DNA of 64,000 nucleotides from Dulcicalothrix desertica PCC 7102 (GCF_003991905.1 NZ_RSCL01000015.1:1-64000); one strand, 5' to 3'; shown: positions 1 through 64,000, counted from the stretch's first letter. Made by a program: numbers and translations. The notes: generated from the letters alone by a model not told the origin.

Positions 1-250
1 TATTAGTATGTTTATTTACTAATGCCAGTACGTATTTATGTAATATTTTATGCGACATTCTGAAGTGCGGAATATGGGTTGTAACCTTCATAAAGTGCAA
101 ATGTCAGCTGTAACATGTTAAAAATTTTTTATAGTACTAATGAATTAAAATTACTTAAACAAACGGTTTATTTATTTTTGTGAATAATTGTAAAATATTG
201 TATATGGGTAATAATGCCCGATTTGACTATACTTATATAATTAATCACCT

Positions 251-700
251 ATGTCATCACTAAGTACAAAAACATCTGACTGGAAAATTAAGCTGTTATA
301 TGACGGTGAATGTCCCTTATGTGTACGCGAAGTCAACTTTTTAAAAAAGCGAGATGCTGGTAGAGGGTTAGTTGCTTTTGTAGATATTGCGGATGAAAAC
401 TATAACCCTTCGGCAAACGGTGGGGTTGACTTTGAAACTGCGATGGGTCGTATTCACGCAGTATTACCTGATGGAACACTAGTCAAAAATGTTGAAGTGT
501 TTCGCCGTATTTACGAAACTTTGGGGATGGGATGGGTTTATGCTGTAACGAAGTTGCCCGTTATCGGCGCCATAGCTGATTTTATATATGGTATTTGGGC
601 AGACTGGCGCCTTGCTTTGACAGCAAGACCAAATTTGGCAACAGTTGTGCGAGAGCGTCAAGAGCGGGCAGAGTGTACAGAGCGCTGCCGCATTGATTGA
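251..700 (+). CDS. DCC1-like thiol-disulfide oxidoreductase family protein (DUF393)
   Basis: 149 aa; N-terminal YDGECPLC motif typical of the DUF393/DCC family; ATG start, clean ORF. Confidence 0.6.
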   Translation: MSSLSTKTSDWKIKLLYDGECPLCVREVNFLKKRDAGRGLVAFVDIADENYNPSANGGVDFETAMGRIHAVLPDGTLVKNVEVFRRIYETLGMGWVYAVTKLPVIGAIADFIYGIWADWRLALTARPNLATVVRERQERAECTERCRID

Positions 701-710
701 TTAGTGTAAG

Positions 711-817
711 AGTGGGATGGGCATCTTGTGGGATGGGCATCTTGTGGGATGGGCATCCTTGCCCGTCCCTACAATATTAAACATGATAAACGGGCAGGGA
801 TGCCCGTTCCACAAGAG
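711..817. repeat. Palindromic MITE-like dispersed repeat (full copy) with internal 16-bp tandem (GGGATGGGCATCTTGT x2.5); core arms CTTGTGGGATGGGCATCCTTGCCCGTCCC / GGGCAGGGATGCCCGTTCCACAAG
   Basis: Inverted repeat read directly; related copies at 12745-12834, 13751-13767, 23706-23735, 56791-56878. Confidence 0.7.
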
Positions 818-823
818 TGATTG

Positions 824-1858
824 TTATTGCCAAGATAAATTTAGAAAGTTTGCTAGCTTTAGAACAATTCTGGCGCCAACATTACCATCCCACTCAGCAT
901 CACCAACTTCGCACAAGTCAAAGCCAATAATTTTTCTACCACTGTTTACTAGTTCTCTAAATAAACAATAAGCTTGTTCTAGTTCTAAACCACCTGGTAC
1001 TGGTGTTCCTGTTTTTGAACAAAGTTTAGGGTCTAAACCGTCAACATCGAAGCTAATATGGACGTGTTGGGGTAGATTATTAATGATTTCTCGACATAAG
1101 TCTATCCAGGTGGCGCCAGAATATTGTCTTTGCTTGATTAGTGAGTCGTAGTAGGCGACTATACGATTGTTTGAGTTGTTAATGAAATCAACTTCTTCAT
1201 GACAAATATCGCGTAAAGCTACTTGAACTAACTTAGAGATTTGCGGAATTTTCATGGCGTTAAACATAATTGACGCATGAGAATATTTAAATCCCTCATA
1301 TGCATCACGTAAGTCAGCATGTGCGTCAATATGTAAAATTCCAAAATCAGGATACTTTGCTGCTAATGCTTGGAAGTAACCTAGTGGAACACTGTGGTCT
1401 CCACCGATAACACCAACTCGCTTACCTTTATTGAGTGCTTCTTGACAGTTTTCAAATAACCATTGATTTACATTGGCGCCTGCCTGGTTAATTTCTGTAA
1501 CAACAGGTGTTAAGTCTGGTGTTTCTGTGAGTGACTTACCTTGTTCTAATCTTTCAATAATGGATGCTGCGCGCGTGCGGTAATATTCGTTTTTTTCCAA
1601 TATATCTTGGGGAATCTCTTGCATAAAAATTCCCTGTTTCCACCCATCAGGATTATCAAAATCAAACAAATCTAACTGGGGTGATGCTTCTAAAACTCTT
1701 TGTGGTCCTGAAGCTGTGCCGGCGCCGTAAGATACAGTTACCTCCCACGGAACCCCAAAAACAATCAAATTCGCCGACTCATAATCGAATGGTAAACCAA
1801 AAAGATTCCCATTCGCTTGGCCTACTCCACTAGGGTTGTAGTCTTGGAGATTACCCAT
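824..1858 (-). CDS. Arginase-family ureohydrolase (agmatinase/guanidino-acid hydrolase-like)
   Basis: 344 aa; Mn-binding motifs GGDHSV and DAHADL characteristic of the arginase/agmatinase fold. Confidence 0.7.
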   Translation of the reverse strand: MGNLQDYNPSGVGQANGNLFGLPFDYESANLIVFGVPWEVTVSYGAGTASGPQRVLEASPQLDLFDFDNPDGWKQGIFMQEIPQDILEKNEYYRTRAASIIERLEQGKSLTETPDLTPVVTEINQAGANVNQWLFENCQEALNKGKRVGVIGGDHSVPLGYFQALAAKYPDFGILHIDAHADLRDAYEGFKYSHASIMFNAMKIPQISKLVQVALRDICHEEVDFINNSNNRIVAYYDSLIKQRQYSGATWIDLCREIINNLPQHVHISFDVDGLDPKLCSKTGTPVPGGLELEQAYCLFRELVNSGRKIIGFDLCEVGDAEWDGNVGARIVLKLANFLNLSWQ

Positions 1859-1954
1859 AATACGCTTCCAGCATTCTGAACTAAACCATTACTATGTTAA
1901 AGGTTTAACGTAGAAAGGGTTATTATATAGAGTGTGTGTACCAGCGTGTAACTT

Positions 1955-2704
1955 ATGGTTCTACAAGCTCCACCCCAGAAGAAACAGCCAAGCATCACTT
2001 GGGAAGCACTTCCTCCCGACTTTGCTCTACCAGATGACCCTGTGGAAAACATTCAACAACCCCCTCTCGCTGCTGGACTTACTGATGCGTTAGGTGCAGC
2101 TGGACGTATTCAACCGCAGATGCTAATTGGTTCCAATTTTGGGCTGGTTGCAAACGTTAACAAAAAAACAGTTGTAAAAGCACCAGATTGGTTTTATGTG
2201 CCAAATGTGCAACCTGTGGCATCCGATGTAATTCGTCGTAGCTACACTCAGAATTTAGAGGGCGACCCCATTGCAGTTGTAATGGAATTTCTCTCGAATG
2301 AAGATAATGGAGAACTTTCTGTACGTGCGACTCCACCATATGGAAAACTTTACTTTTACGAACAAGTTCTCGCTGTTCCCACATATGTAACTTATGACCC
2401 TTACGAACTAATTTTAGAAGTACGGCGCCTGCAAAATAAACAGTACGTACTACAGCAACCATCCGAGCAGGGGCGCCACTGGATTGCTGAGTTAGAGTTA
2501 TTTCTAGGAATTTGGCAAGGTGAGCGACTGTGCCAAACAATGAATTGGCTACGATGGTGGGATGCAGATGGCAATATGTTGTTATGGAGTAGCGAGCAAG
2601 CTGTCCAAGAACGTCAGCGCGCGGAGCAAGAACGCCAACGCGCGGACAAGCTAGCCGCAAAATTACGCGAATTAGGTTTAGACCCTGATGAAATAGGTTC
2701 ATAA
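1955..2704 (+). CDS. Uma2 family (DUF820) putative endonuclease
   Basis: 249 aa; PDWFYVPNV-type core and ERQRAEQERQRAD coiled C-terminal tail typical of cyanobacterial Uma2 proteins. Confidence 0.5.
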   Translation: MVLQAPPQKKQPSITWEALPPDFALPDDPVENIQQPPLAAGLTDALGAAGRIQPQMLIGSNFGLVANVNKKTVVKAPDWFYVPNVQPVASDVIRRSYTQNLEGDPIAVVMEFLSNEDNGELSVRATPPYGKLYFYEQVLAVPTYVTYDPYELILEVRRLQNKQYVLQQPSEQGRHWIAELELFLGIWQGERLCQTMNWLRWWDADGNMLLWSSEQAVQERQRAEQERQRADKLAAKLRELGLDPDEIGS

Positions 2705-2762
2705 TTATGGCGCCTCTTAAATAATTAGGAGGCGCACACAAGTTTATTTATAAAGTAAACAT

Positions 2763-2797
2763 TAATATCCGTAGGTTGGGTGGAGGCTTTGCGGAAC
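2763..2797. repeat. Short hairpin repeat GTTGGGTGGAGGCTTTGCGGAACCCAAC (second copy at 12701-12728)
   Basis: 8-bp inverted arms GTTGGGT/ACCCAAC; identical sequence immediately after the leuC stop. Confidence 0.6.
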
Positions 2798-3334
2798 CCA
2801 ACTAATATAACTATTTTTTATTGTATAAAACTTACCTTATAAATAGTATTTATCTTATATCTCAAAATTTTAATCTGTAATCGACTATTTATACTTGTAT
2901 TTTTAACATCGCAATTTAACTAAAATAGTCAAATTTTAAGAATAATTTATATTAAATATAAATCCAAAATAATAATTCAAAAATTATTGGTACAAACTCA
3001 TGCTTATAATGGTACAGTGATGGTACTAAAAAATCTTTGGAAAGGTTATATTCCCGTCGATTTTTGGTATTGTACCACGGTACCGTACCACTATTTTTAT
3101 GGTAAAAACAAGAGTTTTAGTTAGTTTCAAAAAGATGTTGAGTCATATTATTAAGCTATTATTGACAAATAATTTTATGTTAGTACCAATAATTTTTGAT
3201 TTGGTACTATATTTAATAGCTAACTTTAAGTTTATAAGTTTTAATATATACAAGTAGTAGGCAGTGGGATTCAGAAACAACCCACTGTAAAATGTATTTA
3301 GCAGTACTTAAAAACTATTACGAAATCTTTAGCA

Positions 3335-4159
3335 TCAATATTGGTTCGGACTACTAGTTTTTCCCAGCATGATACTTTCTACTAGAGACCTCCATAACTG
3401 ATCAGGTAATATGGTATGTAAGAAAAATATTGCTTCACCGTAAGGGGAATAACGTAGTTTACCTGATTTATCGTTTGCTGCTCTATATATAACTTTGGCG
3501 ACTCCTTCAGGTTTTGCTAGGGAGTCATTTATCATATCCATGAAGTTTCTGACATGATTTTCCATCTCAGTATAAGCTGGGTGAGGCGCCCATAATGCTC
3601 CATGATTAATAAAATTTGTTTTAATTCCACCAGGTTCAATAATTTTGACACGAATGTTAAAGCGACGCAGTTCGTAACGCATAGCTTCTGAAAGTCCTTC
3701 TACTGCCCATTTTGTTGCATGGTAAGAAGACGTAAACGGAAAACCTATACGCCCACCTATCGATGCAACATTAATAATTGTGCCCCCACCAGATGAGCGG
3801 AAGATTGGCAGGATTGTTTGAATAGTTGATACAAGTCCGAAAAAGTTGGTTTGAAATTGCTGGTGTAATTGCTCTGGTGTGACACCCTCGACTGAACCCA
3901 TGAGCGCATACCCAGCATTATTAATCAATACGTCTATACTGCCAAAGTATTCTAAGGTTTCATGGATTGCGGATGTAATTGTCTCTGGTTTGGTTACATC
4001 AAGTTGAGGACAAATAACTTTGTTTGTTTTCGTCCAATCAAGTGCTTTATTTGGTGTTCGCATTGTGGCTGCAACATTCCAACCTTTTTGGATAAAATAT
4101 TTTCCTGTTGCTTCGCCAATACCACTTGAGGCGCCTGTTATCAAAACTGTCTTACTCAT
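3335..4159 (-). CDS. SDR family short-chain dehydrogenase/reductase
   Basis: 274 aa; TGASSGIGEA Rossmann motif, YxxxK region (SSYHATKWAVEG). Confidence 0.85.
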   Translation of the reverse strand: MSKTVLITGASSGIGEATGKYFIQKGWNVAATMRTPNKALDWTKTNKVICPQLDVTKPETITSAIHETLEYFGSIDVLINNAGYALMGSVEGVTPEQLHQQFQTNFFGLVSTIQTILPIFRSSGGGTIINVASIGGRIGFPFTSSYHATKWAVEGLSEAMRYELRRFNIRVKIIEPGGIKTNFINHGALWAPHPAYTEMENHVRNFMDMINDSLAKPEGVAKVIYRAANDKSGKLRYSPYGEAIFFLHTILPDQLWRSLVESIMLGKTSSPNQY

Positions 4160-4252
4160 TGCTTGCTTCCAAATGTCGTTATGAAGCAGCGTAAACTATG
4201 GAGTATACTCCACAGTCAAGTGGTATTTATTCAAAATTTTTTGGTTACTGTA

Positions 4253-4609
4253 ATGCTAATTGGTCAACTATCGAAGAAAACTGGTTTGTCGAAGGACACT
4301 ATCCGCTTTTATGAAAAAATCGGGCTAATCACTGCAACTGACAAGCAAGCAGGAACCAGAATTTATAAAGAGTATGACGAAGAGATGGTAGAACGTCTTT
4401 CGATGATTAATCAAGGTAAGGGGTTAGGTTTTACTCTCGGCGAAATGAAGCAATTGCTCGACGAATGGGGAAATGGCTCTATTCCTAAAAGCGAACAAAT
4501 ACGAATCATTGAGCGTAAACTCGAAGAAGTTGCGACTAAGATGCAACAACTTCATCAAGTGGAAAATTATCTAATAAATAAGTTAGGCAAATTGAAAGAT
4601 GATTTCTAA
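4253..4609 (+). CDS. MerR family transcriptional regulator
   Basis: N-terminal HTH LIGQLSKKTGLSKDTIRFYEKIGLI; the track ORF begins at an upstream TTG, the first ATG is at 4253; divergent from the SDR gene. Confidence 0.7.
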   Translation: MLIGQLSKKTGLSKDTIRFYEKIGLITATDKQAGTRIYKEYDEEMVERLSMINQGKGLGFTLGEMKQLLDEWGNGSIPKSEQIRIIERKLEEVATKMQQLHQVENYLINKLGKLKDDF

Positions 4610-4670
4610 AAATAGGTGTTGCATTCAGAGGTGCCTTCTGTTTCTAACACTTGATGATTTGCAATAATTA

Positions 4671-4822
4671 GAGATGCTTCGTACCTCAGCATGACAGGAG
4701 GAGATGCTTCGTACCTCAGTATCACAGGAGATGCTTCGTACCTCAGTATCACAGGAGATGCTTCGTACCTCAGTATCACAGGAGATGCTTCGTACCTCAG
4801 TATCACAGAGGATGCTTTGTTT
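4671..4822. repeat. Tandem repeat, 27-bp unit GGAGATGCTTCGTACCTCAGTATCACA, about 5.5 copies
   Basis: Read directly; it generates the artefactual repetitive ORFs at 4606-4873 on both strands. Confidence 0.9.
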
Positions 4823-4979
4823 TTTAGCATGATGTGGTTGGCGCCTCACAAATTTTTGTGTTACAGTGTGTAGTAAGGCAGTAATACAAAGCGATGCTAT
4901 GGTTTGGGTTCTGTATGCCCAACTGGTGCGCTCTTAAGATTTAATTGTGCGTATGCCGCATTATTGTAGCTGTCTTATC

Positions 4980-5052
4980 GTGTGATTAGCTCAGTTGGCA
5001 GAGCATCCGAAGAATCGGCTGGACGAAGGTTCGAGTCCTTTATCATACACCA
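4980..5052 (+). tRNA. tRNA-like gene with defective anticodon arm (possible tRNA pseudogene), CCA encoded
   Basis: Perfect 7-bp acceptor stem GTGTGAT/ATCATAC, D-arm GCTCAGTTGGCAGAGC, T-arm GAAGGTTCGAGTCCTTT, ACCA 3' end. Only 20 nt lie between the D and T arms, with a 4-bp stem and 4-nt loop (CCGA-AGAA-TCGG), so no normal anticodon loop. Confidence 0.4.
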
Positions 5053-5125
5053 AAAAAGTTAGCTCATTAGGTAGAGCGGTCGGCGTTTAACCGATTGGTA
5101 GTAGGTTCGATTCCTACACTTTTAC
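5053..5125 (+). tRNA. tRNA-like gene abutting the previous one; anticodon loop CGTTTAA (TTT, Lys-like) but atypical (G33, A1:A72 mismatch, no CCA)
   Basis: D-arm GCTCATTAGGTAGAGC, anticodon stem GTCGG/CCGAT, T-arm GTAGGTTCGATTCCTAC; acceptor AAAAAGT/ACTTTTA has a first-pair mismatch. Confidence 0.35.
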
Positions 5126-5547
5126 CAACCCTGTCCGGGTCAAAAGACACTACTTTGAGGAAGTAGCTCCTACAAAAATGGAAAAAGGGAGAAATCCCAA
5201 AACGGTTCGATTCCGTTATTTTACAAACTCTGTGGTGCAGGTGCGCGTTTTTGCTTGTCATTCGTGGTGAGCTTTAATGCAACAGTGAAGGCGCCTGTGC
5301 GTTTACATTTTATCTGACTTGAGTATGCCCTTCATTTGTAACATCTAAGTTCTTTACAGAATTTGGAATTAGCAAATTGAACGGTATATGTGAGCGTTGT
5401 TTTCTTAACTGCCGAAAGGTACTTGAGTGACAATAATCTTAATCCAGTAGATAAATATGTATTTGTCCGCACCTTAACTGTAGACACTTGCACTTGCGGA
5501 GTTTATAATTATTTTTCATGTAGTATATATGCTACAAGTTATAAATT

Positions 5548-7128
5548 ATGGCTTTATTTAATTTTGACTGGGTAAAAATACCCAAATTATCTATCAATAT
5601 CACTATGTGGAAAACTTTTTATATCAAACCTAATGAGCTTGGAATTTTGTATCATCGCAGCGATTTTAAGAAAATTTTGCAGCCTGGTACTTATACTTAT
5701 TTTGGTAGTCACTGGCAAGTTAAAGCATATGACCTGAATGTGCCAGAAGCTAAGATTGAAAACTTAGAATTGTTGCTGCGAAACCACGGTTCTGAGTTGG
5801 AAGATTATCTATTAATTGTGCGAACTGCATTTAACCAAACTGCTTTGGTTCGTTTGGGTCAAAACTGGTTGAGCGTTGCACCAAATCAACTACGTGCGTT
5901 TTGGCGTGGTTTTATTGAAGTGGAAGCACATGTCTTTAATTTGGAGGAAAGCTTAGAGTTACCATCTGAGTTTGTTCAACAAACGCGCAGTCTGGTTTTG
6001 GGTGGAATTAGAAAGTTCCAAATTTCTGAGTCTGAGATTGGTTTATTGTATGTGCAAAATAACTTTGTTCGACCTTTAGAACCAGGTGAGTATGCATTTT
6101 GGACTTTTGATAGAGATGTGGCTGTTCGTACTCTTAGTCGAATTATCCCAAATCCAGATTTTCCTCTTGAAGATGTTTTGATTCAAAGACATCCTGATTT
6201 TGTTGCTGCTTATTGTGAGGTCGTGCAACTGCTGAGTACTGAAGTCGCTATTGTACGATATCAAGGTAAAGCTATTTCTATACTGGCGCCATCTAGTCGC
6301 AAGCTGTTTTGGCAAGGTGTGGAAGTTGAAGTTATTGATATCAGCACAGATGCTAAGTTATCACCTCGCTTGGTAGCTGAGTTAAACTCTGGTTTACCTG
6401 AAGTAACTTATCTTGCTTGCAAGAGTTTGCATTTATGCGAGGTTAAGGCACAGCACATTGGTCTACTATATATTAACCAAGAGTTCAAGAACGAACTTCA
6501 ACCGGGTGTCCACGCTTGGTGGATATTTGGACGGTCTTTCCAAACTGAAGTTTTTGACTTGCGTCAACAAGCAATGGAAGTATCGGGTCAAGATATCCTT
6601 TCTAAAGATAAAGTGCCTTTGCGGTTAAACTTGACGGCTGGTTATCGTATTCTAGACCCATTACGAGCAAAAAATGCTTTGTCAGATATAAGTAATTTCT
6701 TGTACAAAGAATTACAGTTTGCTTTACGCGGGGCTGTTGGTGAAAAGACTCTTGATGCTTTGCTCGAAGATAAAGGCGCCGTTGATACGAGTATTTCTGA
6801 GTACATTCGCGCGAAGACAGCAGAGTACGGAATTGAAGTTGCTTCTGTGGGAGTTAAGGATATTATTTTACCTGGTGAGATTAAGACTATTTTGAGTAAG
6901 GTAGTCGAAGCTGAAAAAGCTGCTCAAGCTAACGTAGTACGGCGCCGTGAAGAAACTGCCGCAACTCGTAGTATGTTAAATACCGCTAAAGTGATGGAAG
7001 ATAATCCTGTTGCTTTACGATTAAAGGAACTTGAAGTGCTAGAACGAATTGCCGAGAAAATTGAGAAAATTCAAGTAAACGGTAGCTTAGACAGCATTTT
7101 AACCGAGTTAATTAGCATTAATAGATAG
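5548..7128 (+). CDS. SPFH/band-7 (stomatin/prohibitin-like) domain protein with N-terminal triplicated repeat
   Basis: 526 aa; C-terminal SPFH region (GYRILDP...VVEAEKAAQANVVRRREETAAT...LRLKELEVLERIAE). Three N-terminal copies of about 35 aa (IGLLYxxxxFxxxLxPGxYxxW). Confidence 0.7.
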   Translation: MALFNFDWVKIPKLSINITMWKTFYIKPNELGILYHRSDFKKILQPGTYTYFGSHWQVKAYDLNVPEAKIENLELLLRNHGSELEDYLLIVRTAFNQTALVRLGQNWLSVAPNQLRAFWRGFIEVEAHVFNLEESLELPSEFVQQTRSLVLGGIRKFQISESEIGLLYVQNNFVRPLEPGEYAFWTFDRDVAVRTLSRIIPNPDFPLEDVLIQRHPDFVAAYCEVVQLLSTEVAIVRYQGKAISILAPSSRKLFWQGVEVEVIDISTDAKLSPRLVAELNSGLPEVTYLACKSLHLCEVKAQHIGLLYINQEFKNELQPGVHAWWIFGRSFQTEVFDLRQQAMEVSGQDILSKDKVPLRLNLTAGYRILDPLRAKNALSDISNFLYKELQFALRGAVGEKTLDALLEDKGAVDTSISEYIRAKTAEYGIEVASVGVKDIILPGEIKTILSKVVEAEKAAQANVVRRREETAATRSMLNTAKVMEDNPVALRLKELEVLERIAEKIEKIQVNGSLDSILTELISINR

Positions 7129-7210
7129 TAAAGTTTTGAGAGGTTGTATGGTGGGCAATGCCCACCTTACTGCACAGTTCGTATGCCTGTGCTATGAGTA
7201 ACGTAGGGTG

Positions 7211-9577: not shown

Positions 9578-9603
9578 ACGGATGTAACGGATGTAACGGA
9601 TAA
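9578..9603. repeat. Short tandem repeat (CGGATGTAA)n
   Basis: Read directly. Confidence 0.8.
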
Positions 9604-54901: not shown

Positions 54902-56662
54902 ATGTTATTACTTAATAAACGAATAAATTATTATCTTTTAGCGACTTGTACATGCTTATCCTATTTAGGATTGCAATCTCAAGCAAACGGGCAAATAAGT
55001 ACAGAACCAGTTGATAAGAATGAAATTACACAAATGCCTGATTTGGCGCCGTTTCAGCTAAAGCAAGAAGCATCTGATGCAAAGCCAGTTTTAGAGTATA
55101 CAAGTCGTGCAGAACTGATACGTAGGTTACAGCGTCGGATAGCTGCATCAGATTTAGTGTCTTCACCAGCAATTGCTACAGGTACACAAGAGACATTTCC
55201 CATTAAAGACGTGCAAATTTTAGGTAGTACAGTCTTTAAAAAATCGGAGATTGCGGAAATCGTTAAACCTTATATTGGTAGACAAGCTCGTTTTGAAGAA
55301 CTGCTAGCAATTCGGAGCGCGGTTACAGACTATTACACTAAGCGTGGTTACACAACTTCAGGCGCCTTTTTACCACCGCAAGATGTTTCAAGTGGAGTTG
55401 TGAATGTTCAAGTAGTAGAAGGTGAGCTTGAAAGGGTAGAAATTCAGGGACTAAGACGGTTACGTCCTAGTTATGTGCGCGACCGAATTCGTGATAAAGC
55501 AGGCGCCCCAATTAACTTACGTCGTTTAGAAACCGCGCTTCAATTACTTCAAGTAGACCCTTTGTTTACTTCAGTACAAGCAGAACTAAAAGCTGGAAGC
55601 ACACCAGGACGAAGTATTTTAGCGCTAAATCTTAGAGAAGCACGACCAATAACAACTTCGTTTACAGTGGAAAACCGTGATTCCCCCAGCGTTGGTTCGG
55701 TTCGTGGTACTTCGTCGTTAAGCTATCAAAACTTACTAGGTTTTGGCGATAAATTTACTGCCCAAGTTGGTTATACAAGTGGCGCCAATAGTTATGACCT
55801 TGGTTACAGTTTTCCTATCAATGCACGGGATGGGTCTATAAGCTTTCGTTATGCAGACGGCAACAGTAAAATTATCGAAGAACCATTTTCACCGCTTGAT
55901 ATTCTTGGTCGTACAAAAACCTTTTCACTTGGCTACCGTCAACCAATAGTAAACACTCCAAGTAGCGAATTTACACTCGGTTTCTCAGCAGATTTACGCG
56001 AAAGTCAAACTTATTTGCTCAAAGATATTCCCTTTTCATTCTCAACAGGGCCAGAAGATGGAAACTCAAGAGTAACCGTATTACGATTTAGTCAAGATTG
56101 GATTAACCGCACACCAAACCGCGTATTAGCTGCACGCTCACAATTTAGTTTAGGAATAGGCGCATTAGGAGCAACAGTAAATGATATTGGTGTTGATGGT
56201 AGGTTTATGAGTTGGGTTGGTCAATTTCAGTGGGTACAGAATTTAGGAAGAAATTTTATTGGGGTTGCACGAGTTGCTACTCAGCTAACCCCAGACTCGC
56301 TATTGCCTTTGGAGCAATTTAGTATTGGAGGTGTTGATACAATTCGCGGTTATCGCCAAAACCAATTTGTCGCTGATAACGGTATTACAAGCTCGTTTGA
56401 ACTACGAATTCCAGTAGTAAATCAGCCTGGTGGGTTTGGTAATATTCAGGTGGCGCCGTTTGTGGATGTTGGTAAAGTCTGGAATAATAGTGGTCAATCT
56501 GTTGATACTAGTATTTTTGCCAGCACTGGTTTAGGTTTACGTTGGCAAATCGGTGGCTTCGTGACTCGTTTAGACTGGGGTATTCCTTTAACCTCTATTT
56601 CTCGACAAGGTGACTCACTCCAAGACAATGGTTTATTCTTTTCTTTGATGTATCAGCCGTAA
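54902..56662 (+). CDS. ShlB/FhaC/HecB family two-partner-secretion outer-membrane transporter (TpsB)
   Basis: 586 aa; signal peptide, POTRA region, C-terminal beta-barrel ending in an aromatic residue (MYQP); no TpsA substrate gene adjacent. Confidence 0.65.
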   Translation: MLLLNKRINYYLLATCTCLSYLGLQSQANGQISTEPVDKNEITQMPDLAPFQLKQEASDAKPVLEYTSRAELIRRLQRRIAASDLVSSPAIATGTQETFPIKDVQILGSTVFKKSEIAEIVKPYIGRQARFEELLAIRSAVTDYYTKRGYTTSGAFLPPQDVSSGVVNVQVVEGELERVEIQGLRRLRPSYVRDRIRDKAGAPINLRRLETALQLLQVDPLFTSVQAELKAGSTPGRSILALNLREARPITTSFTVENRDSPSVGSVRGTSSLSYQNLLGFGDKFTAQVGYTSGANSYDLGYSFPINARDGSISFRYADGNSKIIEEPFSPLDILGRTKTFSLGYRQPIVNTPSSEFTLGFSADLRESQTYLLKDIPFSFSTGPEDGNSRVTVLRFSQDWINRTPNRVLAARSQFSLGIGALGATVNDIGVDGRFMSWVGQFQWVQNLGRNFIGVARVATQLTPDSLLPLEQFSIGGVDTIRGYRQNQFVADNGITSSFELRIPVVNQPGGFGNIQVAPFVDVGKVWNNSGQSVDTSIFASTGLGLRWQIGGFVTRLDWGIPLTSISRQGDSLQDNGLFFSLMYQP

Positions 56663-56735
56663 ATTTATTGTGATGAGACTTTAGGCGCCTGCCTAATCGT
56701 TAAAAAGAGGTTAAGATTTAAGTCTTAGCTTGCAT

Positions 56736-56930: not shown

Positions 56931-57060
56931 CAAGGACAATCGCTGATGACCTGCGACCAAACCCGAAGCTTTTTCTTCTTAGCTTTTTACCTTTGCCAAC
57001 CTTTCAATAAAAATACCAACGTATACCATTATCGTACCATGAGATGTCTTTTACAAGCAT

Positions 57061-57205
57061 TAGTCAATAGTTTGTTTCTAGATAATAGTCAATAGTTAAT
57101 CATGAGTAATAGTCAATAGTAGTGCCTTGATTCCCAGGTAATAGTTAAGGGTTAATTATGAGTAACAGTCAATAGTTTATTACTATATAATAGTCAAGAG
57201 TTATT
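57061..57205. repeat. Iteron-like direct repeats, five copies of about TAATAGTCAATAGTT
   Basis: TAGTCAATAGTTTG / AATAGTCAATAGTTAATC / TAATAGTCAATAGTAGTG / TAACAGTCAATAGTTTAT / TAATAGTCAAGAGTTAT. Confidence 0.7.
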
Positions 57206-57395
57206 TTTTTAGATAAAAGCAATGTTTGTGTGTAAACAAAGTCCGCGCATAAAAACCGCACATACATTGTCGCAGACAAACCCATTGATTAACTGTTAAT
57301 TATTTTTTATGGCGCAATACTCAAAAGTATCATTGTTTATACTGAAAAACTGATAGTATCGCGTATAACTATAAAGTCTTTCAGTAGAAAACTTT

Positions 57396-57881
57396 ATGAG
57401 CTTAACCCAAGATACAGAAATTAGAGGTTTGTCAATCGCTGGATGCTACGCTTTATTAATCGCTGAAGGAACCAAAACTATTGAGTTACGGGTATGGCAA
57501 GAAAAAACTTACAGAGGTTTGGTAATGCTGCACTGTAGCAGTGGTTCCGGGTATGATTTTTCGTATGAGCATTGGGAAATATCAAAGGATGAATGTCCTA
57601 AAAGTTCAATCATTGGTGTAGCTACGCTGGTTGATTGCATAAAATACGACACTGCTAAAAAATGGGATGCTGACCGAGAGAAGTTTCAATGGGATATTTC
57701 CTACAAACAAGCTTTAGAAGAATATCAAGGTAAACCAATCTACGGTCATGTTTTTGAAAATCCCTGTGTTTTTGACCCTCCAATATTAAATATTAAAGGA
57801 ACATTTCGTTATTGGGAACCAAAAACAGACCCACAGATTGAAGCGGCAGAACAAGTAAAGTTTTTGATTAGCAATATTTAA
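57396..57881 (+). CDS. ASCH (PUA-like) domain protein
   Basis: 161 aa; N-terminal KTIELRVW beta-barrel motif typical of the ASCH fold; tentative. Confidence 0.4.
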   Translation: MSLTQDTEIRGLSIAGCYALLIAEGTKTIELRVWQEKTYRGLVMLHCSSGSGYDFSYEHWEISKDECPKSSIIGVATLVDCIKYDTAKKWDADREKFQWDISYKQALEEYQGKPIYGHVFENPCVFDPPILNIKGTFRYWEPKTDPQIEAAEQVKFLISNI

Positions 57882-57884
57882 CCG

Positions 57885-58193
57885 TTAGTTTTCTCCGGGT
57901 TTTATCCTATCAATGCCTCGATGATAACCGCGATTATAACCTTGACGATAAACCTTTAAAATTTCTTCGCTACAATCTTTTGGCAAGTCCACAGAAACAT
58001 CTTCCTCGAAATGTTCACCGCAATAATCGCTACTTACATACTGCGATAATAAATCTGGGTTACTAAAGATTCTACTAGCGAAGTCACCTGGTAGATGTCG
58101 TACTTGTGCGTAAATCCATTTTTTAAAACTGTGTTCTTTTACTAGATTATTCACTATTTGTTGCAGGTTTTCCATTGTTCTTACCCTGGTCAA
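57885..58193 (-). CDS. Hypothetical protein (102 aa)
   Basis: ORF only. Confidence 0.3.
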   Translation of the reverse strand: MTRVRTMENLQQIVNNLVKEHSFKKWIYAQVRHLPGDFASRIFSNPDLLSQYVSSDYCGEHFEEDVSVDLPKDCSEEILKVYRQGYNRGYHRGIDRIKPGEN

Positions 58194-58444
58194 ATTTAAA
58201 AAACAATACCCTCGAAGAATATTATTCTACGACAAAACCAAAAAAAACATAAGCCCAGAGTTACAGTCGCAGCAAAGCTGCTTCTGGGGCATACCTGCCG
58301 CAGTCGTAGATATCCCACGAAAAAACCATGAGAATTTCTCATGGAATTTCATTGGTTTCTACGAAACTCCGCTAATTTATCACCAAATTCCACGAAGTTT
58401 CACAGACCTATCATCGATATCCCATTGGGCTTTTATCGAGGCTT

Positions 58445-58801
58445 TTAGCGATTGTTTTTGGTATAAGCCAAGATAACAGCTAAAGCTTCATCCTCGGTTT
58501 CGTAACTGGAACGCCAATCAAGGAAAAGGAGCGCTGGATGTTTCTTTTGGTGACTTCGATAGCGAGTTGGTCGTTGAATAGGCGTATGAGTTACTTCCCA
58601 GATTTGTCCTGCGTAGGGAAAAAGTTCACCGATTTGTGGCACAAAGTTAAAGCTAAGAAGGTGAACGCCAACGCACTTTTGAACAATATCCTGGGGTGTT
58701 TTATTGCGAACATCTTCGGGTAATCTGAGGACGCACCCAATCGTTATCCGCTGTTGGTTTAAAACAACCTTTTCATAAACCTTTCCTAGATTCTCAAGCA
58801 T
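58445..58801 (-). CDS. Hypothetical protein (118 aa)
   Basis: ORF only; last gene of the minus-strand array. Confidence 0.35.
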   Translation of the reverse strand: MLENLGKVYEKVVLNQQRITIGCVLRLPEDVRNKTPQDIVQKCVGVHLLSFNFVPQIGELFPYAGQIWEVTHTPIQRPTRYRSHQKKHPALLFLDWRSSYETEDEALAVILAYTKNNR

Positions 58802-58870
58802 TGATAGACTCCTTAGTTAATATTTATTAATTTAACAGAAAAGCATTTTGTAAAAGCTAAAATGCCTATT

Positions 58871-59031
58871 GCCCCGCCATCGCCCCAGTTTTTATCTATT
58901 ATTTAATATTTTTGGGGCGGAACAGTGATTTTTCTGGGGCGGAACCTTCGGGCGGACTGGGGCGGAGCCTGTAATGCTTATCGCCCCGTTGTACCCCTGT
59001 CTGTTTTTGAGTTTTCGCCCCAGGTAAAAGC
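58871..59031. promoter_or_regulatory. Cluster of 7-8 GGGGCGG (or complement CGCCCC) motifs in 160 bp of otherwise AT-rich DNA, including direct repeats TGGGGCGGAAC x2, GGGGCGGAGC, GGGCGGACTG
   Basis: Read directly; lies between two co-oriented minus-strand genes. Confidence 0.5.
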
Positions 59032-59037
59032 AAGGTC

Positions 59038-60879
59038 TTATCCTTTGTACGAAATTGTGTAAGTATCAGCGGATATTTCTATTAAGAAGTTGGTCAAGGA
59101 AAGTAGCTTAAGTATTTCTCGAACATCCTGTACTGATAATCTATTGCCATCATTAGTAAAATCCATAAAGTACCGACTCTTGCGAATATGTTCCACGGTA
59201 ACTTCCGATAATTCTTTTTGAATTAAATAACCTTTGACTGCATCTGCGAGTTTAATAATGTAATCAAAATGGCTGGCTTCATGGTTAGGTTGAGAGCTTG
59301 GTTTAAGAATTTCTTCGGTAAATTCCTCATCATGTAATATGTCAGAGGAAGTTTCGCTAATAACAGGTTCGTTGGTGGTTTTATTGGATTCCCAAAGCTT
59401 TCTATAATTTTGATATTCAGCGTAGACAGAACTAGGGACAACTCCCAAAGTCCAATTATTATAGTTACCAAGCACTATTGGTTCATCGGTGGCAACGTCT
59501 ATTGAATCAAGCTGAGATTTCAACAATGAGCGTTTACCATTGTCGCTAATCAAGAAATTATTTCCTAGGGCTAGTTCGATAAATTCTCTCTTGCCATTCT
59601 TCGCTAAGAATATCATATCACCCACAGAACGAGCAGAGGCACTGCCCATGAAAGGTAAATCTTGGACGTTTGATGAATGGCTACTGACAAAAACAGCGCT
59701 ATTATATTCTCGACCCACAAGCCAATATTCGTTAAGTAAAGTCATCAAGTGTTCGTACAGCGGTAAACAATCAAAAGACGCTTCGCTGGCTTCTTTCTTG
59801 CTGTCAAACACTGCATAATTTTCGGGGTTAATGAATTTACCTTTAGTACCAGTCTCAAGGTATTTTTGCATTGTTAGAAAATCATCCAAGAATAATCTGC
59901 TGATATTTCCTGTGTGACTTGTTGAACCATCAATGAATTTAATGATTTCAACAGCAGCGGTAACAGCACCAGATTTAACACTAATACATTTGTCAGATAC
60001 TCCGCGAAAAGCTTCTATATCGCTTTTCTTGACTACTACAGCTAGGCTTTTAAACTTTGACCCATATCGTTGTTTTAAAGCACCCCAAGCTGTACCAAGA
60101 AACGTTGTTTTACCGCTTCCTGGTGCAGCTAATATTACACAACCTCCAAGGACAGAATCATCGGCACGGTTAACTAGTGAATCTCTAATAGAGATTGCAT
60201 TAGCGAATAAATCAGTGTTGCATACCGGATTATTAGCGTTGAAACTATCTTTAGGACTATTTGCAGTAGATGTTAATATATTTGTTTTTTGAGCATCACC
60301 CACTGTTTGCTTCCCTTGAATTAAATCTAGTATTTGCAGCGGTTTTAATCGTAATGCACTAGCACAGTAAGTAAGTGCTGCATCCCAAGAATCCACACTT
60401 CGACCAATCAATTTATTTTCAAAAAGTTGTCCTGTAGATGCTTCATATAAACTTTCTAAGAAAATGTCAGTGCTGGTGCAATGCCATAACCCAGCCCAAT
60501 TATCGAGTGGTGCCTTGGATAAAGCAATCTCATATTTTTTCAATATTTCAATTACAGGTGTCTCAAGTTTATTCTTAAAAACAGAACCACCGACAGTTGC
60601 CAAAGTAAAAACACCAAGGATAGGTATCGCCACTGGTGTAATCATCAAACTAGCTGTTGCAAAAATTGCTGATGCAATCGATGTCCAACTCGTGAAATTT
60701 TTTGCGTTTTCTGCATCATTCTCGCGTTCGCTGATATTTCTACAAAGCTCACCTAAAAACTTTCTCTTTGATTCAAGCGAATCAACATCGTTAAATTGTA
60801 GCCCAGATTTAAATAATAGTTCAAAAGAATTTTTTCCTGATTCAGTCAGTGCCAGCGTTTTTACTGTTAAATTAGTCAT
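59038..60879 (-). CDS. P-loop NTPase with RecA/DnaB-like (AAA_25/RepA-like) core and N-terminal membrane-anchoring segment
   Basis: 613 aa; Walker A ILAAPGSGKTTFLG, Walker B RLFLDDF, downstream AVFVSSHSS (DnaB H3-like); hydrophobic stretch at residues 60-100. Confidence 0.45.
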   Translation of the reverse strand: MTNLTVKTLALTESGKNSFELLFKSGLQFNDVDSLESKRKFLGELCRNISERENDAENAKNFTSWTSIASAIFATASLMITPVAIPILGVFTLATVGGSVFKNKLETPVIEILKKYEIALSKAPLDNWAGLWHCTSTDIFLESLYEASTGQLFENKLIGRSVDSWDAALTYCASALRLKPLQILDLIQGKQTVGDAQKTNILTSTANSPKDSFNANNPVCNTDLFANAISIRDSLVNRADDSVLGGCVILAAPGSGKTTFLGTAWGALKQRYGSKFKSLAVVVKKSDIEAFRGVSDKCISVKSGAVTAAVEIIKFIDGSTSHTGNISRLFLDDFLTMQKYLETGTKGKFINPENYAVFDSKKEASEASFDCLPLYEHLMTLLNEYWLVGREYNSAVFVSSHSSNVQDLPFMGSASARSVGDMIFLAKNGKREFIELALGNNFLISDNGKRSLLKSQLDSIDVATDEPIVLGNYNNWTLGVVPSSVYAEYQNYRKLWESNKTTNEPVISETSSDILHDEEFTEEILKPSSQPNHEASHFDYIIKLADAVKGYLIQKELSEVTVEHIRKSRYFMDFTNDGNRLSVQDVREILKLLSLTNFLIEISADTYTISYKG

Positions 60880-60979
60880 ATGTTTATTTTTTTATAATTT
60901 CAAAGGTAGATATTTACGAATCTACCTTGATTTTTTATCTCAATGTATGATATATTAGGAATAAGCAACAGAATAAAGC

Positions 60980-61717
60980 CTAGAGCTTATATTTTTGTTC
61001 GGGTTCTTCGGAATCGCCTTCAATATTACCAAGCAAAGATATTGTGCTGGCAACAAACTTTAAAGCAAACTCAGGAGCAAACAAAGAAAGTACTCCAAGT
61101 ATTAAACCAAAAGGGTTAAAGTTACCGAGCAAAGTATAGGTAATCATCAGTGTCGTTTCGACAATGTAACTGATTCTACGCGCTGCTTTAAGGTTTTTGT
61201 GGTCATGAGACAACCATTGAGTTAAGCGCTGTTTTACAGAAACATCAGCGTCGGTTTCAAGGTTAGGATTCACGTTATTTTTTGAGTAATATTCCGCAAA
61301 TTGTCTGCTGATTTTCCACATCTCAGAACTAAGCTGAAAAGCATTCACGCAAACCCCGAAGAATAAACCAATAAAACCTGCCGAATAACCACCAATGGAA
61401 GATAACCCAAATAATCTACCGAACCATAACCCTAGTGCGTACCATTGACCAGTAGTCACGATTAAAACCACGCCAAATATAATGATTGACAGCAAACATG
61501 GCGTTGATGGTGAGCTAATAAATTTAATTGCGATAGAAAACAAGAAGACAGCAGTGTGTAAGCATTCGTGAAGAATCTCTGATAAAAGCGTTAGTAGTTT
61601 TCGGAGAATTCTAAATATTTTCTTGACAATTGCTGTAACTCCATCCCAGAATGTTTTTTTGGTTTTCTTTGCTGTATCACTTGATGAATTAGAACCAGGT
61701 TTATAATTTTGTTGCAT
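60980..61717 (-). CDS. Hypothetical integral membrane protein (245 aa, about 5 TM)
   Basis: ATG overlaps the stop of the upstream gene (TAATG). Confidence 0.4.
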   Translation of the reverse strand: MQQNYKPGSNSSSDTAKKTKKTFWDGVTAIVKKIFRILRKLLTLLSEILHECLHTAVFLFSIAIKFISSPSTPCLLSIIIFGVVLIVTTGQWYALGLWFGRLFGLSSIGGYSAGFIGLFFGVCVNAFQLSSEMWKISRQFAEYYSKNNVNPNLETDADVSVKQRLTQWLSHDHKNLKAARRISYIVETTLMITYTLLGNFNPFGLILGVLSLFAPEFALKFVASTISLLGNIEGDSEEPEQKYKL

Positions 61718-62220
61718 TAGTTGTCACCTTTCATTGATAATTGATTTTGAACTTCTTTTATACTGAAAATCCGTGTAACAGTTACCTCGCCATTCGAGTA
61801 AACAACATTAAGGAATTGTTTTGTTTTTGGTACGTAGACGCAACTTGTAGGAATCTTCCCGGTTTCTGTACCTTCGACTGCGATAACATCGTTTATTTTC
61901 AGCGGATAATTAGCTTTATTCTGCCAGCAGGTATCGCTCTTAACATGTTTCGCGATATTAACCAGCGCTCTCTGCCGTGAACTTATCGCTGTTTGCGAAG
62001 AAACATTCGCTGATATTTGCTGGGTCATTCCATAACTAAATATTGAGAAATTACCTAGCACTCCCACCAGAATAATTGTATTGAGATGTTTTTTTAAAGT
62101 TTGAATCATTGCGCTTATTCTTCGGTTAATTGATGGATTATTTTTTACATGTTCAAGAAACATCTGTGAACTGGTTACAGCCCCGCCAACAAATCCAACT
62201 TCGCTAGCGGCTGTAACCAT
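61717..62220 (-). CDS. Hypothetical membrane-anchored protein (167 aa)
   Basis: One TM helix (IILVGVLGNFSIFSY); translationally coupled to the next gene. Confidence 0.4.
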   Translation of the reverse strand: MVTAASEVGFVGGAVTSSQMFLEHVKNNPSINRRISAMIQTLKKHLNTIILVGVLGNFSIFSYGMTQQISANVSSQTAISSRQRALVNIAKHVKSDTCWQNKANYPLKINDVIAVEGTETGKIPTSCVYVPKTKQFLNVVYSNGEVTVTRIFSIKEVQNQLSMKGDN

Positions 62221-62231
62221 ATCTATAGACT

Positions 62232-62750
62232 TTAAGCAATGAGCTTTTTCTTGAACACTTGCATAAAAACCGCGAGTTCATCCTTGGCTGCAACTCCATC
62301 AGCTTGTAGTTTTACATCGTCGCCTAACAGCCCAGATACTTCTTGCAAAATGCCGCGTAATGTTTCACGCTCGTTTCTGTGTTCTTGCTGGAAATGTGCC
62401 GCTAGTTCTTTTTTCTTCTGATTGTGTATATGGATTATTGCTTGGTTTTCTACTTCAGCGATTGTTTCGTGGTACTGTAACCGCTCGACAATACTAAGCT
62501 TGATTTGATGCTCTAACACCTCGCTAGCAGTCAATACAATAGCCTTCTGATGTTCCAATGGCATATCTACTACATGTTCTATTGCAGTGGCTCCAATGCG
62601 CTTTGCATTAACTAGTTTGGTGATAATCTCGAACTCCGCATCAGTTAATTCTTTGACTGAATCCCAGTGATTGTTGGTTTCGGATAATATCATGCGGATT
62701 TCTTCAATAGATAACCCTGTTTCTGTCGAGACTTGATTAATGTTTTTCAT
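62232..62750 (-). CDS. Hypothetical helical protein (172 aa)
   Basis: ORF, acidic, coiled-coil-like. Confidence 0.35.
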   Translation of the reverse strand: MKNINQVSTETGLSIEEIRMILSETNNHWDSVKELTDAEFEIITKLVNAKRIGATAIEHVVDMPLEHQKAIVLTASEVLEHQIKLSIVERLQYHETIAEVENQAIIHIHNQKKKELAAHFQQEHRNERETLRGILQEVSGLLGDDVKLQADGVAAKDELAVFMQVFKKKLIA

Positions 62751-62786
62751 TTTGTAAAATCCTTTTTAGTAAATTTATTGAATGTT

Positions 62787-63107
62787 TTAGTGTTTGAACC
62801 CGGTTTGCTTCCGGTAAGCATACTTTGAAAAATCCGCTGGACTAGCTTTGATTTTGTCAACGATGAATTTCTTGTTCTTAAAAACTTTGAAGGCATCGTT
62901 AATTTGAATTAAAACCCAACATTGGTAGCGAGTCAGCGGTAAACGTTCTGTGTGAGTTTCGCGGTAATCCTCAATTAATATTTTTGCCATCCGCTGATAA
63001 CGATGCAAGGTAGCTGCACCCACGTTTAATATTTGTGATAAATCTTTACCGAGCGTAAACTCTGGTAAACTTGTAATGTCAAACTGTAATAAATCTGTTG
63101 ATAACAC
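62787..63107 (-). CDS. Putative HTH DNA-binding protein (Xis/MerR-like), first gene of the minus-strand array
   Basis: 106 aa; GKDLSQILNVGAATLHRYQRMA resembles an HTH; directly downstream of the operator-like repeats. Confidence 0.35.
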   Translation of the reverse strand: MLSTDLLQFDITSLPEFTLGKDLSQILNVGAATLHRYQRMAKILIEDYRETHTERLPLTRYQCWVLIQINDAFKVFKNKKFIVDKIKASPADFSKYAYRKQTGFKH

Positions 63108-63134
63108 CTGTGTTTTTTCTCCTGTGATTGTTTG

Positions 63135-63200
63135 ATGGAAGTTCGTGGAAGTTCGTGAAAGTTCGTGAGATATTCTCTTGGTTTATCCGTGAGATATTTA
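63135..63200. promoter_or_regulatory. Operator-like direct repeats GGAAGTTCGTG x3 and CGTGAGATATT x2
   Basis: Read directly, immediately upstream of the HTH gene start (63107). Confidence 0.5.
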
Positions 63201-63291
63201 ACAGTAAAAAAAACGAGATTTGATAATCGGTAATTGTTTGAAATGCGTCTCTGTTGTTTTTACGCTTCTGTTATTAGTTTACCACATTTAA

Positions 63292-63520
63292 GATGCAATG
63301 TGCAACTTAATAGAGATTTTTTTTGGCTAAAACCTTTGTTATTTAAAGGTTTTAGCAGTGATGCAATCAGCACATCAAAACTAAGTTTTTATTTAGAATA
63401 TAGCCATAGTAAAGGTTTCACCGATTAACCCACTGGGAAAATGCTAAGATTAATGCACTGATGCAAACTGCACATCAAAACTAAGGTTTACTTTTTTAGC
63501 TGATGCACAATGCTCACTTT
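63292..63520. promoter_or_regulatory. Divergent control region with two full copies of TGATGCAAnCnGCACATCAAAACTAAG plus two half-sites (GATGCAATGTGCAAC, TGATGCACAATGCTCAC)
   Basis: Read directly between the minus-strand array and the plus-strand RHH gene. Confidence 0.5.
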
Positions 63521-63760
63521 AAGGAAAACTATCTTGTAGATAAACCTATTAAAAATCTTATGTCTAATCAAAACACTGTTAAAAGAAGCACCATCAATAT
63601 ACCCACGAAAATCTACGGATTAATCCTTAGCCTATCCGCAAACCAAATTAGTTTTAGTTCCACAGTTGTCATGCTACTGACTGAAGCTCTAGAAGCCCGT
63701 GGTCTTATCGTTGATAAAATCGAACCAATCACTAAGGATGAACTTAAAGAAAAACCGTAA
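63503..63760 (+). CDS. Putative ribbon-helix-helix (CopG/Arc-like) DNA-binding protein
   Basis: KRSTINIPTKIYGLILSLSANQISFSSTVVMLLTEAL fits the beta-alpha-alpha RHH pattern; the start may be the internal Met (MSNQN). Confidence 0.35.
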   Translation: MHNAHFKENYLVDKPIKNLMSNQNTVKRSTINIPTKIYGLILSLSANQISFSSTVVMLLTEALEARGLIVDKIEPITKDELKEKP

Positions 63761-64000
63761 GCTTACTAAAAATGTTTATATATAAACAATAGCTGCGTAT
63801 TTACGGAGTTATTTTAGTATCTTTTTAGACATGTTTTCTCAAACCTTAATAGCTGCTTAGAATTTCGATACGGGGGGTTCCAAAACCCGTCCATAGCCCC
63901 CCTACTTTTTAAAGACTAATATAGTTGCTATGGACGGATTTTTTGCTTACTGTATAAGGCTTTCAGCGATTTAGCCCCTTGCAACGCTTGCAAGCTTTTT

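Follow-up and report, generated by a model that had tools for sequence, protein, structure and literature searches.

GGCGCC sites along the window

The window, a 64,000-nt stretch of Dulcicalothrix desertica PCC 7102 with a GC content of 37.4%, contains 92 copies of the palindromic hexamer GGCGCC by exact count, corresponding to 1,437 per Mb. An original prediction, made from the sequence alone, had singled out this word as extremely over-represented and as a lineage-specific counterpart of HIP1, the highly iterated palindrome (HIP) of cyanobacteria, whose octamer GCGATCGC has no copy in the window. The site positions given there are correct within about 10 bp and the absence of HIP1 is confirmed, while the total, put at well over 100, was too high. 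The sites are distributed over the following regions, among which the gene leuC is listed separately as the best-resolved case of synonymous recoding.

1..15900: core region A; 41 sites (2.58/kb), at 566, 606, 872, 1112, 1475, 1721, 2424, 2472, 2709, 3585, 4130, 4840, 5290, 6285, 6775, 6941, 7547, 7797, 8552, 8822, 9515, 10158, 10496, 10883, 11175, 11226, 11702, 11813, 11978, 12280, 12387, 12597, 12952, 13024, 13294, 14330, 14701, 14761, 14791, 14899 and 15478
11297..12700, + strand: leuC, with six sites at 11702, 11813, 11978, 12280, 12387 and 12597
15901..23300: strain-variable insertion with a Rep_1 gene and a 1264-aa sacsin/NOV_C-like gene (Pfam/NCBIfam); 6 sites (0.81/kb), at 17223, 17494, 17909, 20333, 21625 and 22391
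23301..33600: core region B; 19 sites (1.84/kb), at 24164, 24263, 24524, 25134, 25228, 25636, 26167, 26242, 26722, 27456, 28384, 29251, 29404, 30849, 32531, 32883, 32976, 33014 and 33089
33601..44000: polysaccharide-synthesis cluster with five family-2 glycosyltransferases, a flippase and a Wzy-like protein (Pfam); 5 sites (0.48/kb), at 35201, 37361, 39160, 42948 and 43233
44001..56700: core region C; 21 sites (1.65/kb), at 44858, 45067, 46774, 47704, 48286, 48388, 48940, 49598, 49856, 49945, 50468, 51951, 52771, 53218, 53789, 55045, 55361, 55502, 55781, 56452 and 56684
56940..64000: GGCGCC-free element made up of genes without known relatives, running past the window end

Markov models built from the window predict 2.7, 4.6, 3.9 and 11.6 copies at orders 0, 1, 2 and 3, respectively, so that the observed number exceeds expectation 8- to 34-fold. 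Among all 4096 hexamers, GGCGCC is the most over-represented (observed/expected 33.7); words overlapping it come next, and no other palindromic hexamer exceeds 4.4-fold. An order-4 model, against which the original prediction had proposed to count the word, expects 51 copies, a ratio of only 1.8, but the comparison is unfair. GGCGC and GCGCC occur 100 and 94 times in the window, and 92 copies of each sit within GGCGCC. Because the pentamers of the order-4 model come almost wholly from the hexamer itself, the low ratio does not refute the excess.

The sites are dispersed along the DNA, as had been claimed, and do not trace back to a few repeated elements. Their spacing has a mean of 617 bp, a median of 408 bp, a minimum of 30 bp and a coefficient of variation of 1.04, and their flanks are unrelated, with only 10 of the 4186 site pairs having a common 10-mer, which we estimate to be about the chance level. 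GGCGCC does not behave as a dispersed repeat element (REP/MITE-like), since its copies have no common sequence beyond the core, nor as a restriction–modification target of the NarI/KasI/SfoI or AcyI type, being 34-fold enriched without avoidance. It has instead the properties by which HIPs are recognised (Elhai 2015): it is a palindrome of 100% GC (at least 75% is needed) and an outlier among words of its length, its 1,437 dispersed copies per Mb belong to no repeat family and fall within the 1,000–2,000 per Mb given for HIPs, and it occurs where HIP1 is missing, alternative HIPs being found only where HIP1 is low or absent.

CGATCG is absent from the window, and GATC is depleted 14-fold (16 copies against 218 expected). 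The other words of the form GRCGYC are also rare, GACGTC having no copy against 7.6 expected and GACGCC and GGCGTC together 2 against 9.2. Palindrome avoidance extends further, to GGCC (12 copies against 78 expected) and to 17 palindromic hexamers that are wholly absent, including TTCGAA and AGATCT (21 expected each), CTGCAG, GAGCTC, CCATGG and GTCGAC; this wide avoidance suggests many restriction systems in the lineage.

The excess is written in synonymous codons

Coding frames were assigned with 50 open reading frames that were picked greedily and cover 81% of the window. In agreement with the earlier description of sites in all frames and between genes, 52 of the 92 sites are read as GGC-GCC, 20 as xxG-GCG-CCx and 12 as xGG-CGC-Cxx, and 8 are intergenic. 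As a stricter null, synonymous codons were shuffled within each gene, which keeps the proteins and the codon usage of each gene; 200 such shuffles gave 6.8±2.5 coding sites, with a maximum of 14, against the 84 observed. The excess therefore survives a control that holds every protein sequence fixed.

Codon choice at the peptides that can carry the site is strongly skewed. Of 96 Gly-Ala dipeptides, 52 are spelled GGC-GCC where about 1.4 would be expected (24 of 35 in core region A), whereas outside these pairs the share of GGC among Gly codons is 12.6%, and that of GCC among Ala codons 11.4%. GGC-GCC outnumbers GGT-GCC by 52 to 4, even though, elsewhere, there are 3.6 GGT codons for every GGC. 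Likewise, GGCGCC is found in 20 of the 43 X-Ala-Pro tripeptides and in 12 of the 32 [G/W/R]-Arg-[L/P/H/Q/R] tripeptides that are able to form it synonymously. Because codon choices at Gly-Ala, X-Ala-Pro and Arg-centred peptides all favour the site, the excess is written into the DNA through synonymous choice, and the protein sequence does not impose it.

The LeuC encoded in the window matches that of D. desertica PCC 7102 at 100% identity, and its gene displays this recoding against nine outgroups of the HIP1 type. Five of the six leuC sites lie on residues common to most or all of these outgroups (Gly-Ala twice, Leu-Ala-Pro once and Gly-Arg-Gln twice), the exceptions being Tyr for Ala in three outgroups and a different flanking residue in a few. 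At these residues the outgroups use mixed synonymous codons, such as GGT-GCA or GGT-AGA-CAA, and never form GGCGCC, whereas the clade of PCC 7102 spells them GGC-GCC, TTG-GCG-CCA and GGG-CGC-CAA. The sixth site, at 11813, comes with a replacement of Thr, Asn or Lys by Ala. Creation of the leuC sites took changes at several positions, including transversions toward G or C, in genes whose third-codon-position GC is 0.28–0.31 in the clade against 0.37–0.45 in the outgroups. Conversely, a HIP1 site (GCGATCGC, coding for Ala-Ile-Ala) that is kept in all nine outgroups reads GCWATTGC across the clade, with the amino acids unchanged and both HIP1 and GATC lost.

GGCGCC is a trait of one clade

For two strains, Calothrix sp. 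PCC 7103 and Calothrix D253, GGCGCC is already on record as the alternative HIP (Elhai 2015, Life 5:921, PMC4390886). According to that study, HIP1 is missing from PCC 7103, its GATC depletion is the most extreme, its CGATCG methyltransferase gene is truncated, and it possibly has a GATC restriction enzyme; it is unique in having two GRCGYC methyltransferases, and its other GRCGYC words are under-represented (Elhai 2015, PMC4390886). The locus of Calothrix PCC 7103 (GCA_000331305) is syntenic with the window at 94.5% DNA identity, and the hexamer, its order of abundance, the lack of HIP1 and CGATCG, the GATC depletion and the scarcity of GRCGYC words all recur in PCC 7102. PCC 7102, which lay outside the 97 genomes of that survey and for which we found no report of the motif in the searchable literature, is thus a further genome of a phenomenon already published for its sister strain, and the swap of motifs is not itself new.

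What differs is the distribution. At the leuC locus we sampled PCC 7103, HK-06, FI2-JRJ7, Rivularia IAM M-261 with a near-identical assembly, NIES-4105/4071, C42_A2020_038 (hereafter C42) and several metagenome contigs. All of these loci carry 1.5–2.3 GGCGCC per kb and 0–1 HIP1 per 21 kb, and all are strongly depleted in GATC. At a second locus, 30 sites were counted in 16.5 kb of a JGI contig (JGI 3300083027, L101) and 13 in 15.5 kb of a C42 contig (L100), corresponding to 0.8–1.8/kb. Nearly all of the next relatives, which are of Nostocales type with LeuC identities of 90% or less (two contigs at 88–90%), have 11–33 HIP1 sites and no GGCGCC, a few loci having a single chance-level copy. A scan of the genome collection with LeuC likewise returned, among the matches listed, only relatives of 89% identity or less, all of the HIP1 type. 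GGCGCC is therefore common to the whole clade, in every relative sampled, with a sharp switch to HIP1 in the next relatives.

In a neighbour-joining tree rooted on C42, the most distant member in every comparison, the NIES-4105/4071 branch comes next; DNA distances within the clade reach 0.144–0.150, and the deepest branches differ by about 0.3 at third codon positions. Exceptional HIPs have been stated to "occur sporadically, not in clades" (Elhai 2015, PMC4390886), which no longer holds for GGCGCC, since the motif extends over the clade at conserved site positions and was met in about nine additional sources as well as on a megaplasmid. The megaplasmid, plasmid 1 of NIES-4105 (395 kb), has 71 GGCGCC in 50 kb (1.4/kb) and no HIP1, so the process acts on resident plasmids too. 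Taken together, these comparisons support the predicted notion of a lineage-specific, hyper-abundant palindrome analogous to HIP1, as a DNA-level excess confined to one clade. The original prediction also presumed a link to a methyltransferase or repair process, as does the published reading for PCC 7103, and the decay spectrum of the sites described below agrees with it.

Sites are conserved in position and lost at the central CpG

Site positions are conserved between clade members well beyond the surrounding DNA. In NIES-4105/4071, 84% of the window sites are intact as compared with 44% of hexamers in general, and in C42 67% as compared with 41%. The same holds for single codons: GGC and GCC codons inside sites are conserved at 86–95% in NIES-4105/4071 and 68–84% in C42, against 42% and 22–29%, respectively, outside sites. 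By these measures (84% against 44% for hexamers, 86–95% against 42% for codons), GGCGCC exhibits the conservation that Xu et al. 2018 used to characterise highly iterated palindromes; a like pattern was reported for HIP1 and argued to reflect selection (Xu et al. 2018). The outer positions 1, 2, 5 and 6 are changed in only 1.2–3.6% of pairwise comparisons, against a background of 5–14% overall and 10–33% at third codon positions.

Among 64 aligned positions with a site in any clade member, 31 vary, and 26 of the 31 alternative alleles that differ by a single substitution are GGTGCC or GGCACC, the central CpG transitions. Read along the gene, the frame GGC-GCC has 13 synonymous GGT-GCC alleles (C to T at position 3) against 2 synonymous changes at position 6, the frame G-GCG-CC has 5 synonymous GCA alleles, and in the frame GG-CGC-C, in which both CpG transitions alter the amino acid, none of 8 sites varies. 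About 67% of the changes at other four-fold C sites lead to T, and our own binomial estimate for 13 of 15 changes at position 3, which assumes this figure and equal freedom of positions 3 and 6, gives P ~3e-5. Elsewhere in the clade genomes, the frequency of CpG transitions exceeds that of other C/G transitions only by a factor of about 1.5. Two sites read GGTGCC in one strain and GGCACC in another, and were therefore lost independently on opposite strands. Parsimony assigns 8–23 gains and 18–33 losses, so the sites are in flux.

GGTGCC/GGCACC is the sole pair of one-substitution neighbours above expectation (1.6-fold in the window and 3.7-fold on the plasmid); the remaining ones have a mean of about 0.5 of expectation, as compared with 0.96 for comparable hexamers. 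Because turnover is almost exclusively C to T at the central CpG, the inner cytosine is most likely 5-methylated (GGmCGCC), with deamination as the main route of loss, as judged from the substitution pattern. Elhai's model requires a methylated inner C, which could not be verified at the time (Elhai 2015, PMC4390886); nor could it be said then which C is methylated, and the spectrum obtained here points to the inner one.

At three sites within 3 kb (11813, 13294 and 14761), PCC 7103 differs from its closest relatives, which have GGCGCC, and carries GGTGCC like the deeper NIES-4105/4071 and C42; either a recombined tract or deamination that occurred several times independently could explain this.

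Site density drops in strain-specific DNA

The three core stretches have a mean density of 2.1/kb (range 1.65–2.58). Core region A is syntenic with PCC 7103, HK-06, FI2-JRJ7, IAM M-261 and NIES-4105/4071, and core region C partly with the clade contigs of C42 and JGI 3300083027; a search for downstream synteny with the CobT-like gene gave matches only in C42 and one JGI contig. The insertion at 15901–23300 is missing from PCC 7103 and FI2-JRJ7, in which the Bax1-I gene adjoins the acetolactate synthase gene. Its strain-specific 3.8-kb gene has only two GGCGCC; two more lie in the Rep_1 gene and are both common to HK-06 and NIES-4105/4071. The polysaccharide-synthesis cluster, with a GC content of 0.337, is poorer still in sites.

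The stretch at 56.7–64 kb contains no GGCGCC at all, whereas core density would predict about 15 (Poisson P = 2.5e-7). Homology to contig L101 ends at about 56.93 kb, beyond which that contig goes on with DUF1818 and rpoZ genes, whereas the window continues with genes for a 613-aa P-loop-like protein, several small proteins and one ASCH-domain protein. These genes matched nothing in Pfam beyond ASCH and, among PHROGs, only two families without an assigned function; a scan of viral contigs found no relative. The element shows a host-like avoidance of GATC (0 copies against 24.9 expected) and GGCC (0 against 8.9), and is probably a mobile element, of unknown type, that arrived recently. The original prediction had placed fewer copies in AT-rich islets and taken this as a mark of recent acquisition. 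With corrected coordinates this reading is supported and the density drop in strain-specific DNA stands, at 0.81/kb in 15.9–23.3 kb and zero in 56.7–64 kb; the latter, however, is not AT-rich (GC 0.373), and the island at 33.6–44 kb had been missed.

Several neighbouring features deserve mention in their own right. Between the Bax1-I and acetolactate synthase genes lies a hot spot of variation with a plasmid-type Rep_1 gene (window 15901–23300; clade loci L083 16837–21407, L087 14982–21416 and L091 14897–15832), and its cargo differs per strain: a 1264-aa sacsin-ATPase/NOV_C protein in the window, a 1698-aa peptidase-S10 protein in IAM M-261 and a sugar-modification cluster in NIES-4105/4071. 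The Rep_1 protein matched no clade plasmid in the plasmid collection. In the IAM M-261 lineage (L081–L086), a gene for a 438-aa glycosyltransferase (UDPGT/EryCIII-like) lies between leuC and leuD, which adjoin in the window and in other clade genomes. Two tRNA genes stand end to end at 4980–5126; the second is tRNA-Lys(UUU), and for the first, which scores 50 bits with the Rfam tRNA model and has an encoded CCA end, ARAGORN assigned no anticodon, giving a two-base 'ga'. The GGCGCC sites at 4840 and 5290 that flank this pair are kept in 6 of 6 aligned clade genomes. Finally, a ShlB/FhaC-type two-partner-secretion transporter at 54902–56662 contains five GGCGCC; no close orthologue was found in the named clade genomes, the best match being a short read-assembly contig at 88% identity, and the window has no obvious exoprotein partner gene next to the transporter.

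A probable directional process on DNA and its alternatives

We consider it likely that GGCGCC is the HIP of the Dulcicalothrix clade, that it reflects a methylation-linked directional process on DNA, and that it replaced HIP1 in a common ancestor. On this reading, GGCGCC would have taken the place of HIP1 in the common ancestor of PCC 7102, PCC 7103 and their relatives, and a directional process at the DNA level would drive near-matches to the full hexamer where coding permits and between genes, bringing resident DNA, plasmids included, to about 1.5–2.5 sites/kb. The inner C would be 5-methylated by GRCGYC-type methyltransferases such as those reported for PCC 7103, and its deamination to GGTGCC or GGCACC would be the main form of site loss. 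New DNA would enter without sites and gain them slowly. The directional force may be a methylation-dependent bias in mismatch repair or recombination, either Elhai's ratchet or a transformation-linked drive like the one recently suggested for HIP1, that favours the strand with the complete word. Of these elements, the DNA-level excess, its restriction to the clade, the conserved positions, the CpG turnover and the shortage of sites in strain-specific DNA are demonstrated by the data, whereas methylation and the nature of the force are inferred. A narrower and more demanding proposition, which we hold tentatively, is that GGCGCC is a stable inherited replacement of HIP1 that arose by one ancestral swap, with positions kept in all sampled descendants, a methylated inner C, plasmids that acquire sites and fresh DNA that lacks them.

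Several observations weigh against a methylation-linked directional process. The 64-kb window contains no methyltransferase, Vsr or other repair gene. Elhai's model saturates near 1 site/kb, while core DNA here has 2–2.6/kb with sites down to 30 bp apart. Transitions at CpG rank first among synonymous changes generally, with T as the product of about 67% of changes at four-fold C sites. The turnover rests on small numbers (31 variable sites) from related strains, whose events are partly non-independent. Positional conservation is equally predicted by selection on each site, as argued for HIP1 (Xu et al. 2018). In addition, the depletion of near-matches that a ratchet predicts is weak in 64 kb (~0.5 against 0.96), and all-GC hexamers are generally rare.

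The most serious alternative, though in our judgement rather unlikely, is that natural selection keeps each site for a cellular function of the kind proposed for HIP1, such as a methylation-dependent uptake signal, Chi-like recombination in transformation or chromosome organisation, and that the clade changed the signal word. Selection would account for sites conserved well beyond the same codons elsewhere, for the richness of core DNA as opposed to strain-specific DNA, and for the persistence of the trait over a clade with about 14% DNA divergence. The uptake sequences of Neisseria and Haemophilus are likewise rich in core DNA and poor in strain-specific DNA. For HIP1 itself, the literature reports that the methylated motif boosts transformation up to 100-fold in Synechococcus PCC 7002 and that HIP1 abundance co-varies with DNA-uptake machinery across the phylum; a functional role of GGCGCC may be proposed by analogy with these cases. 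Selection per site would nevertheless have to be very weak, given ~15,000–20,000 sites per genome, a figure extrapolated from the density in the window and the roughly 11-Mb chromosomes of two clade relatives. The sites also have a random-like spacing without regularity. Conversion has reached over half of the positions that could be converted cheaply, a pattern closer to a bias acting on each site than to a requirement for a certain density. In conservation tests, a conversion bias mimics selection. We therefore favour a methylation-dependent bias in repair or recombination over site-by-site selection. The converted positions, the random spacing down to 30 bp, the spread to the megaplasmid and the rise of density with residence time are suggestive of such a bias, not decisive.

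The remaining explanations fare worse. Very-short-patch repair alone, in which a Vsr-type endonuclease together with a cytosine methyltransferase turns T:G in GGTGCC/GGCGCC into C:G and enriches GGCGCC by over-correction, would fit the near restriction of turnover to exchange between GGCGCC and GGTGCC/GGCACC and the 52:4 ratio of GGC-GCC to GGT-GCC, and over-correction by Vsr is what enriches CCWGG in E. coli, where CTWGG is depleted. However, such repair corrects only the mismatched T, whereas the sites gained in leuC and leuD were built from words differing at positions 1, 3, 6 and others, transversions included (A to C, T to G, AGA to CGC). Moreover, GGTGCC/GGCACC stands at 1.6–3.7 times expectation without the depletion seen for CTWGG, the outer positions are the most strongly maintained, and no vsr gene lies in the 64-kb window. 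This explanation is accordingly very improbable. The idea that the excess merely follows from base composition, from the choice of codons or dipeptides, or from dispersed repeat copies could appeal to the order-4 ratio of only 1.8 and to Gly-Ala being a common dipeptide. Its chances are close to nil: the order-4 pentamers occur almost only inside the hexamer, the flanks share nothing beyond chance, and the synonymous shuffle (6.8±2.5 against 84), the sites in all three frames and between genes, and the outgroup orthologues that encode the same residues without the motif exclude composition, codon or dipeptide usage and repeat elements as the cause.

Relation to known motifs and implications

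GGCGCC resembles HIP1 in being a GC-rich palindrome at about 1–2/kb, present in all frames and between genes via synonymous recoding, and conserved beyond codon-level controls (Xu et al. 2018 for HIP1). HIP1 contains a cytosine methyltransferase target, and GGCGCC may do so as well, as judged from the GRCGYC enzymes of PCC 7103 and, indirectly, from the CpG-transition spectrum. The two differ in length, six bases against eight, and in the GATC core, which GGCGCC does not have, and they are mutually exclusive, the HIP1 site of nine outgroups having been erased synonymously in the GGCGCC clade. The cognate enzymes of HIP1, DmtA and DmtC, have been replaced or lost (Elhai 2015, PMC4390886).

With the CCWGG motif of Dcm and Vsr in E. 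coli, GGCGCC has in common that the deaminated methyl-C (T:G) would be the main exchange, biased to the C-containing word. GGCGCC enrichment is, however, far larger and needs changes at all six positions, and its T-derivative is not depleted. The DNA uptake sequences (DUS) of Neisseriaceae and uptake signal sequences (USS) of Pasteurellaceae are similar in occurring at about one site per kb in all frames of coding DNA, in being lineage-specific and in being denser in core than in new DNA; unlike GGCGCC, they are 9–12 bases long, non-palindromic and methylation-independent, and an uptake role of GGCGCC could be proposed by analogy only.

The function and the writing of HIP1-type motifs have been a question in cyanobacterial biology for 30 years. 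The present comparison shows that an alternative motif is inherited by a clade and conserved site by site, that it decays via the central CpG, and that it is missing from new DNA and present on a resident megaplasmid. Alternative HIPs had been viewed as non-persistent, which the clade-wide persistence of GGCGCC corrects, and the CpG decay, read from the sequences, is consistent with the inner-C methylation required by Elhai's model. One branch of the Nostocales is thereby singled out, on which a comparison of gene content could identify the responsible enzymes. If the swap was indeed a stable and inherited one, the clade would constitute a natural motif-swap experiment, and the genes gained and lost on this branch should name the HIP-writing machinery that has been sought since the 1990s.

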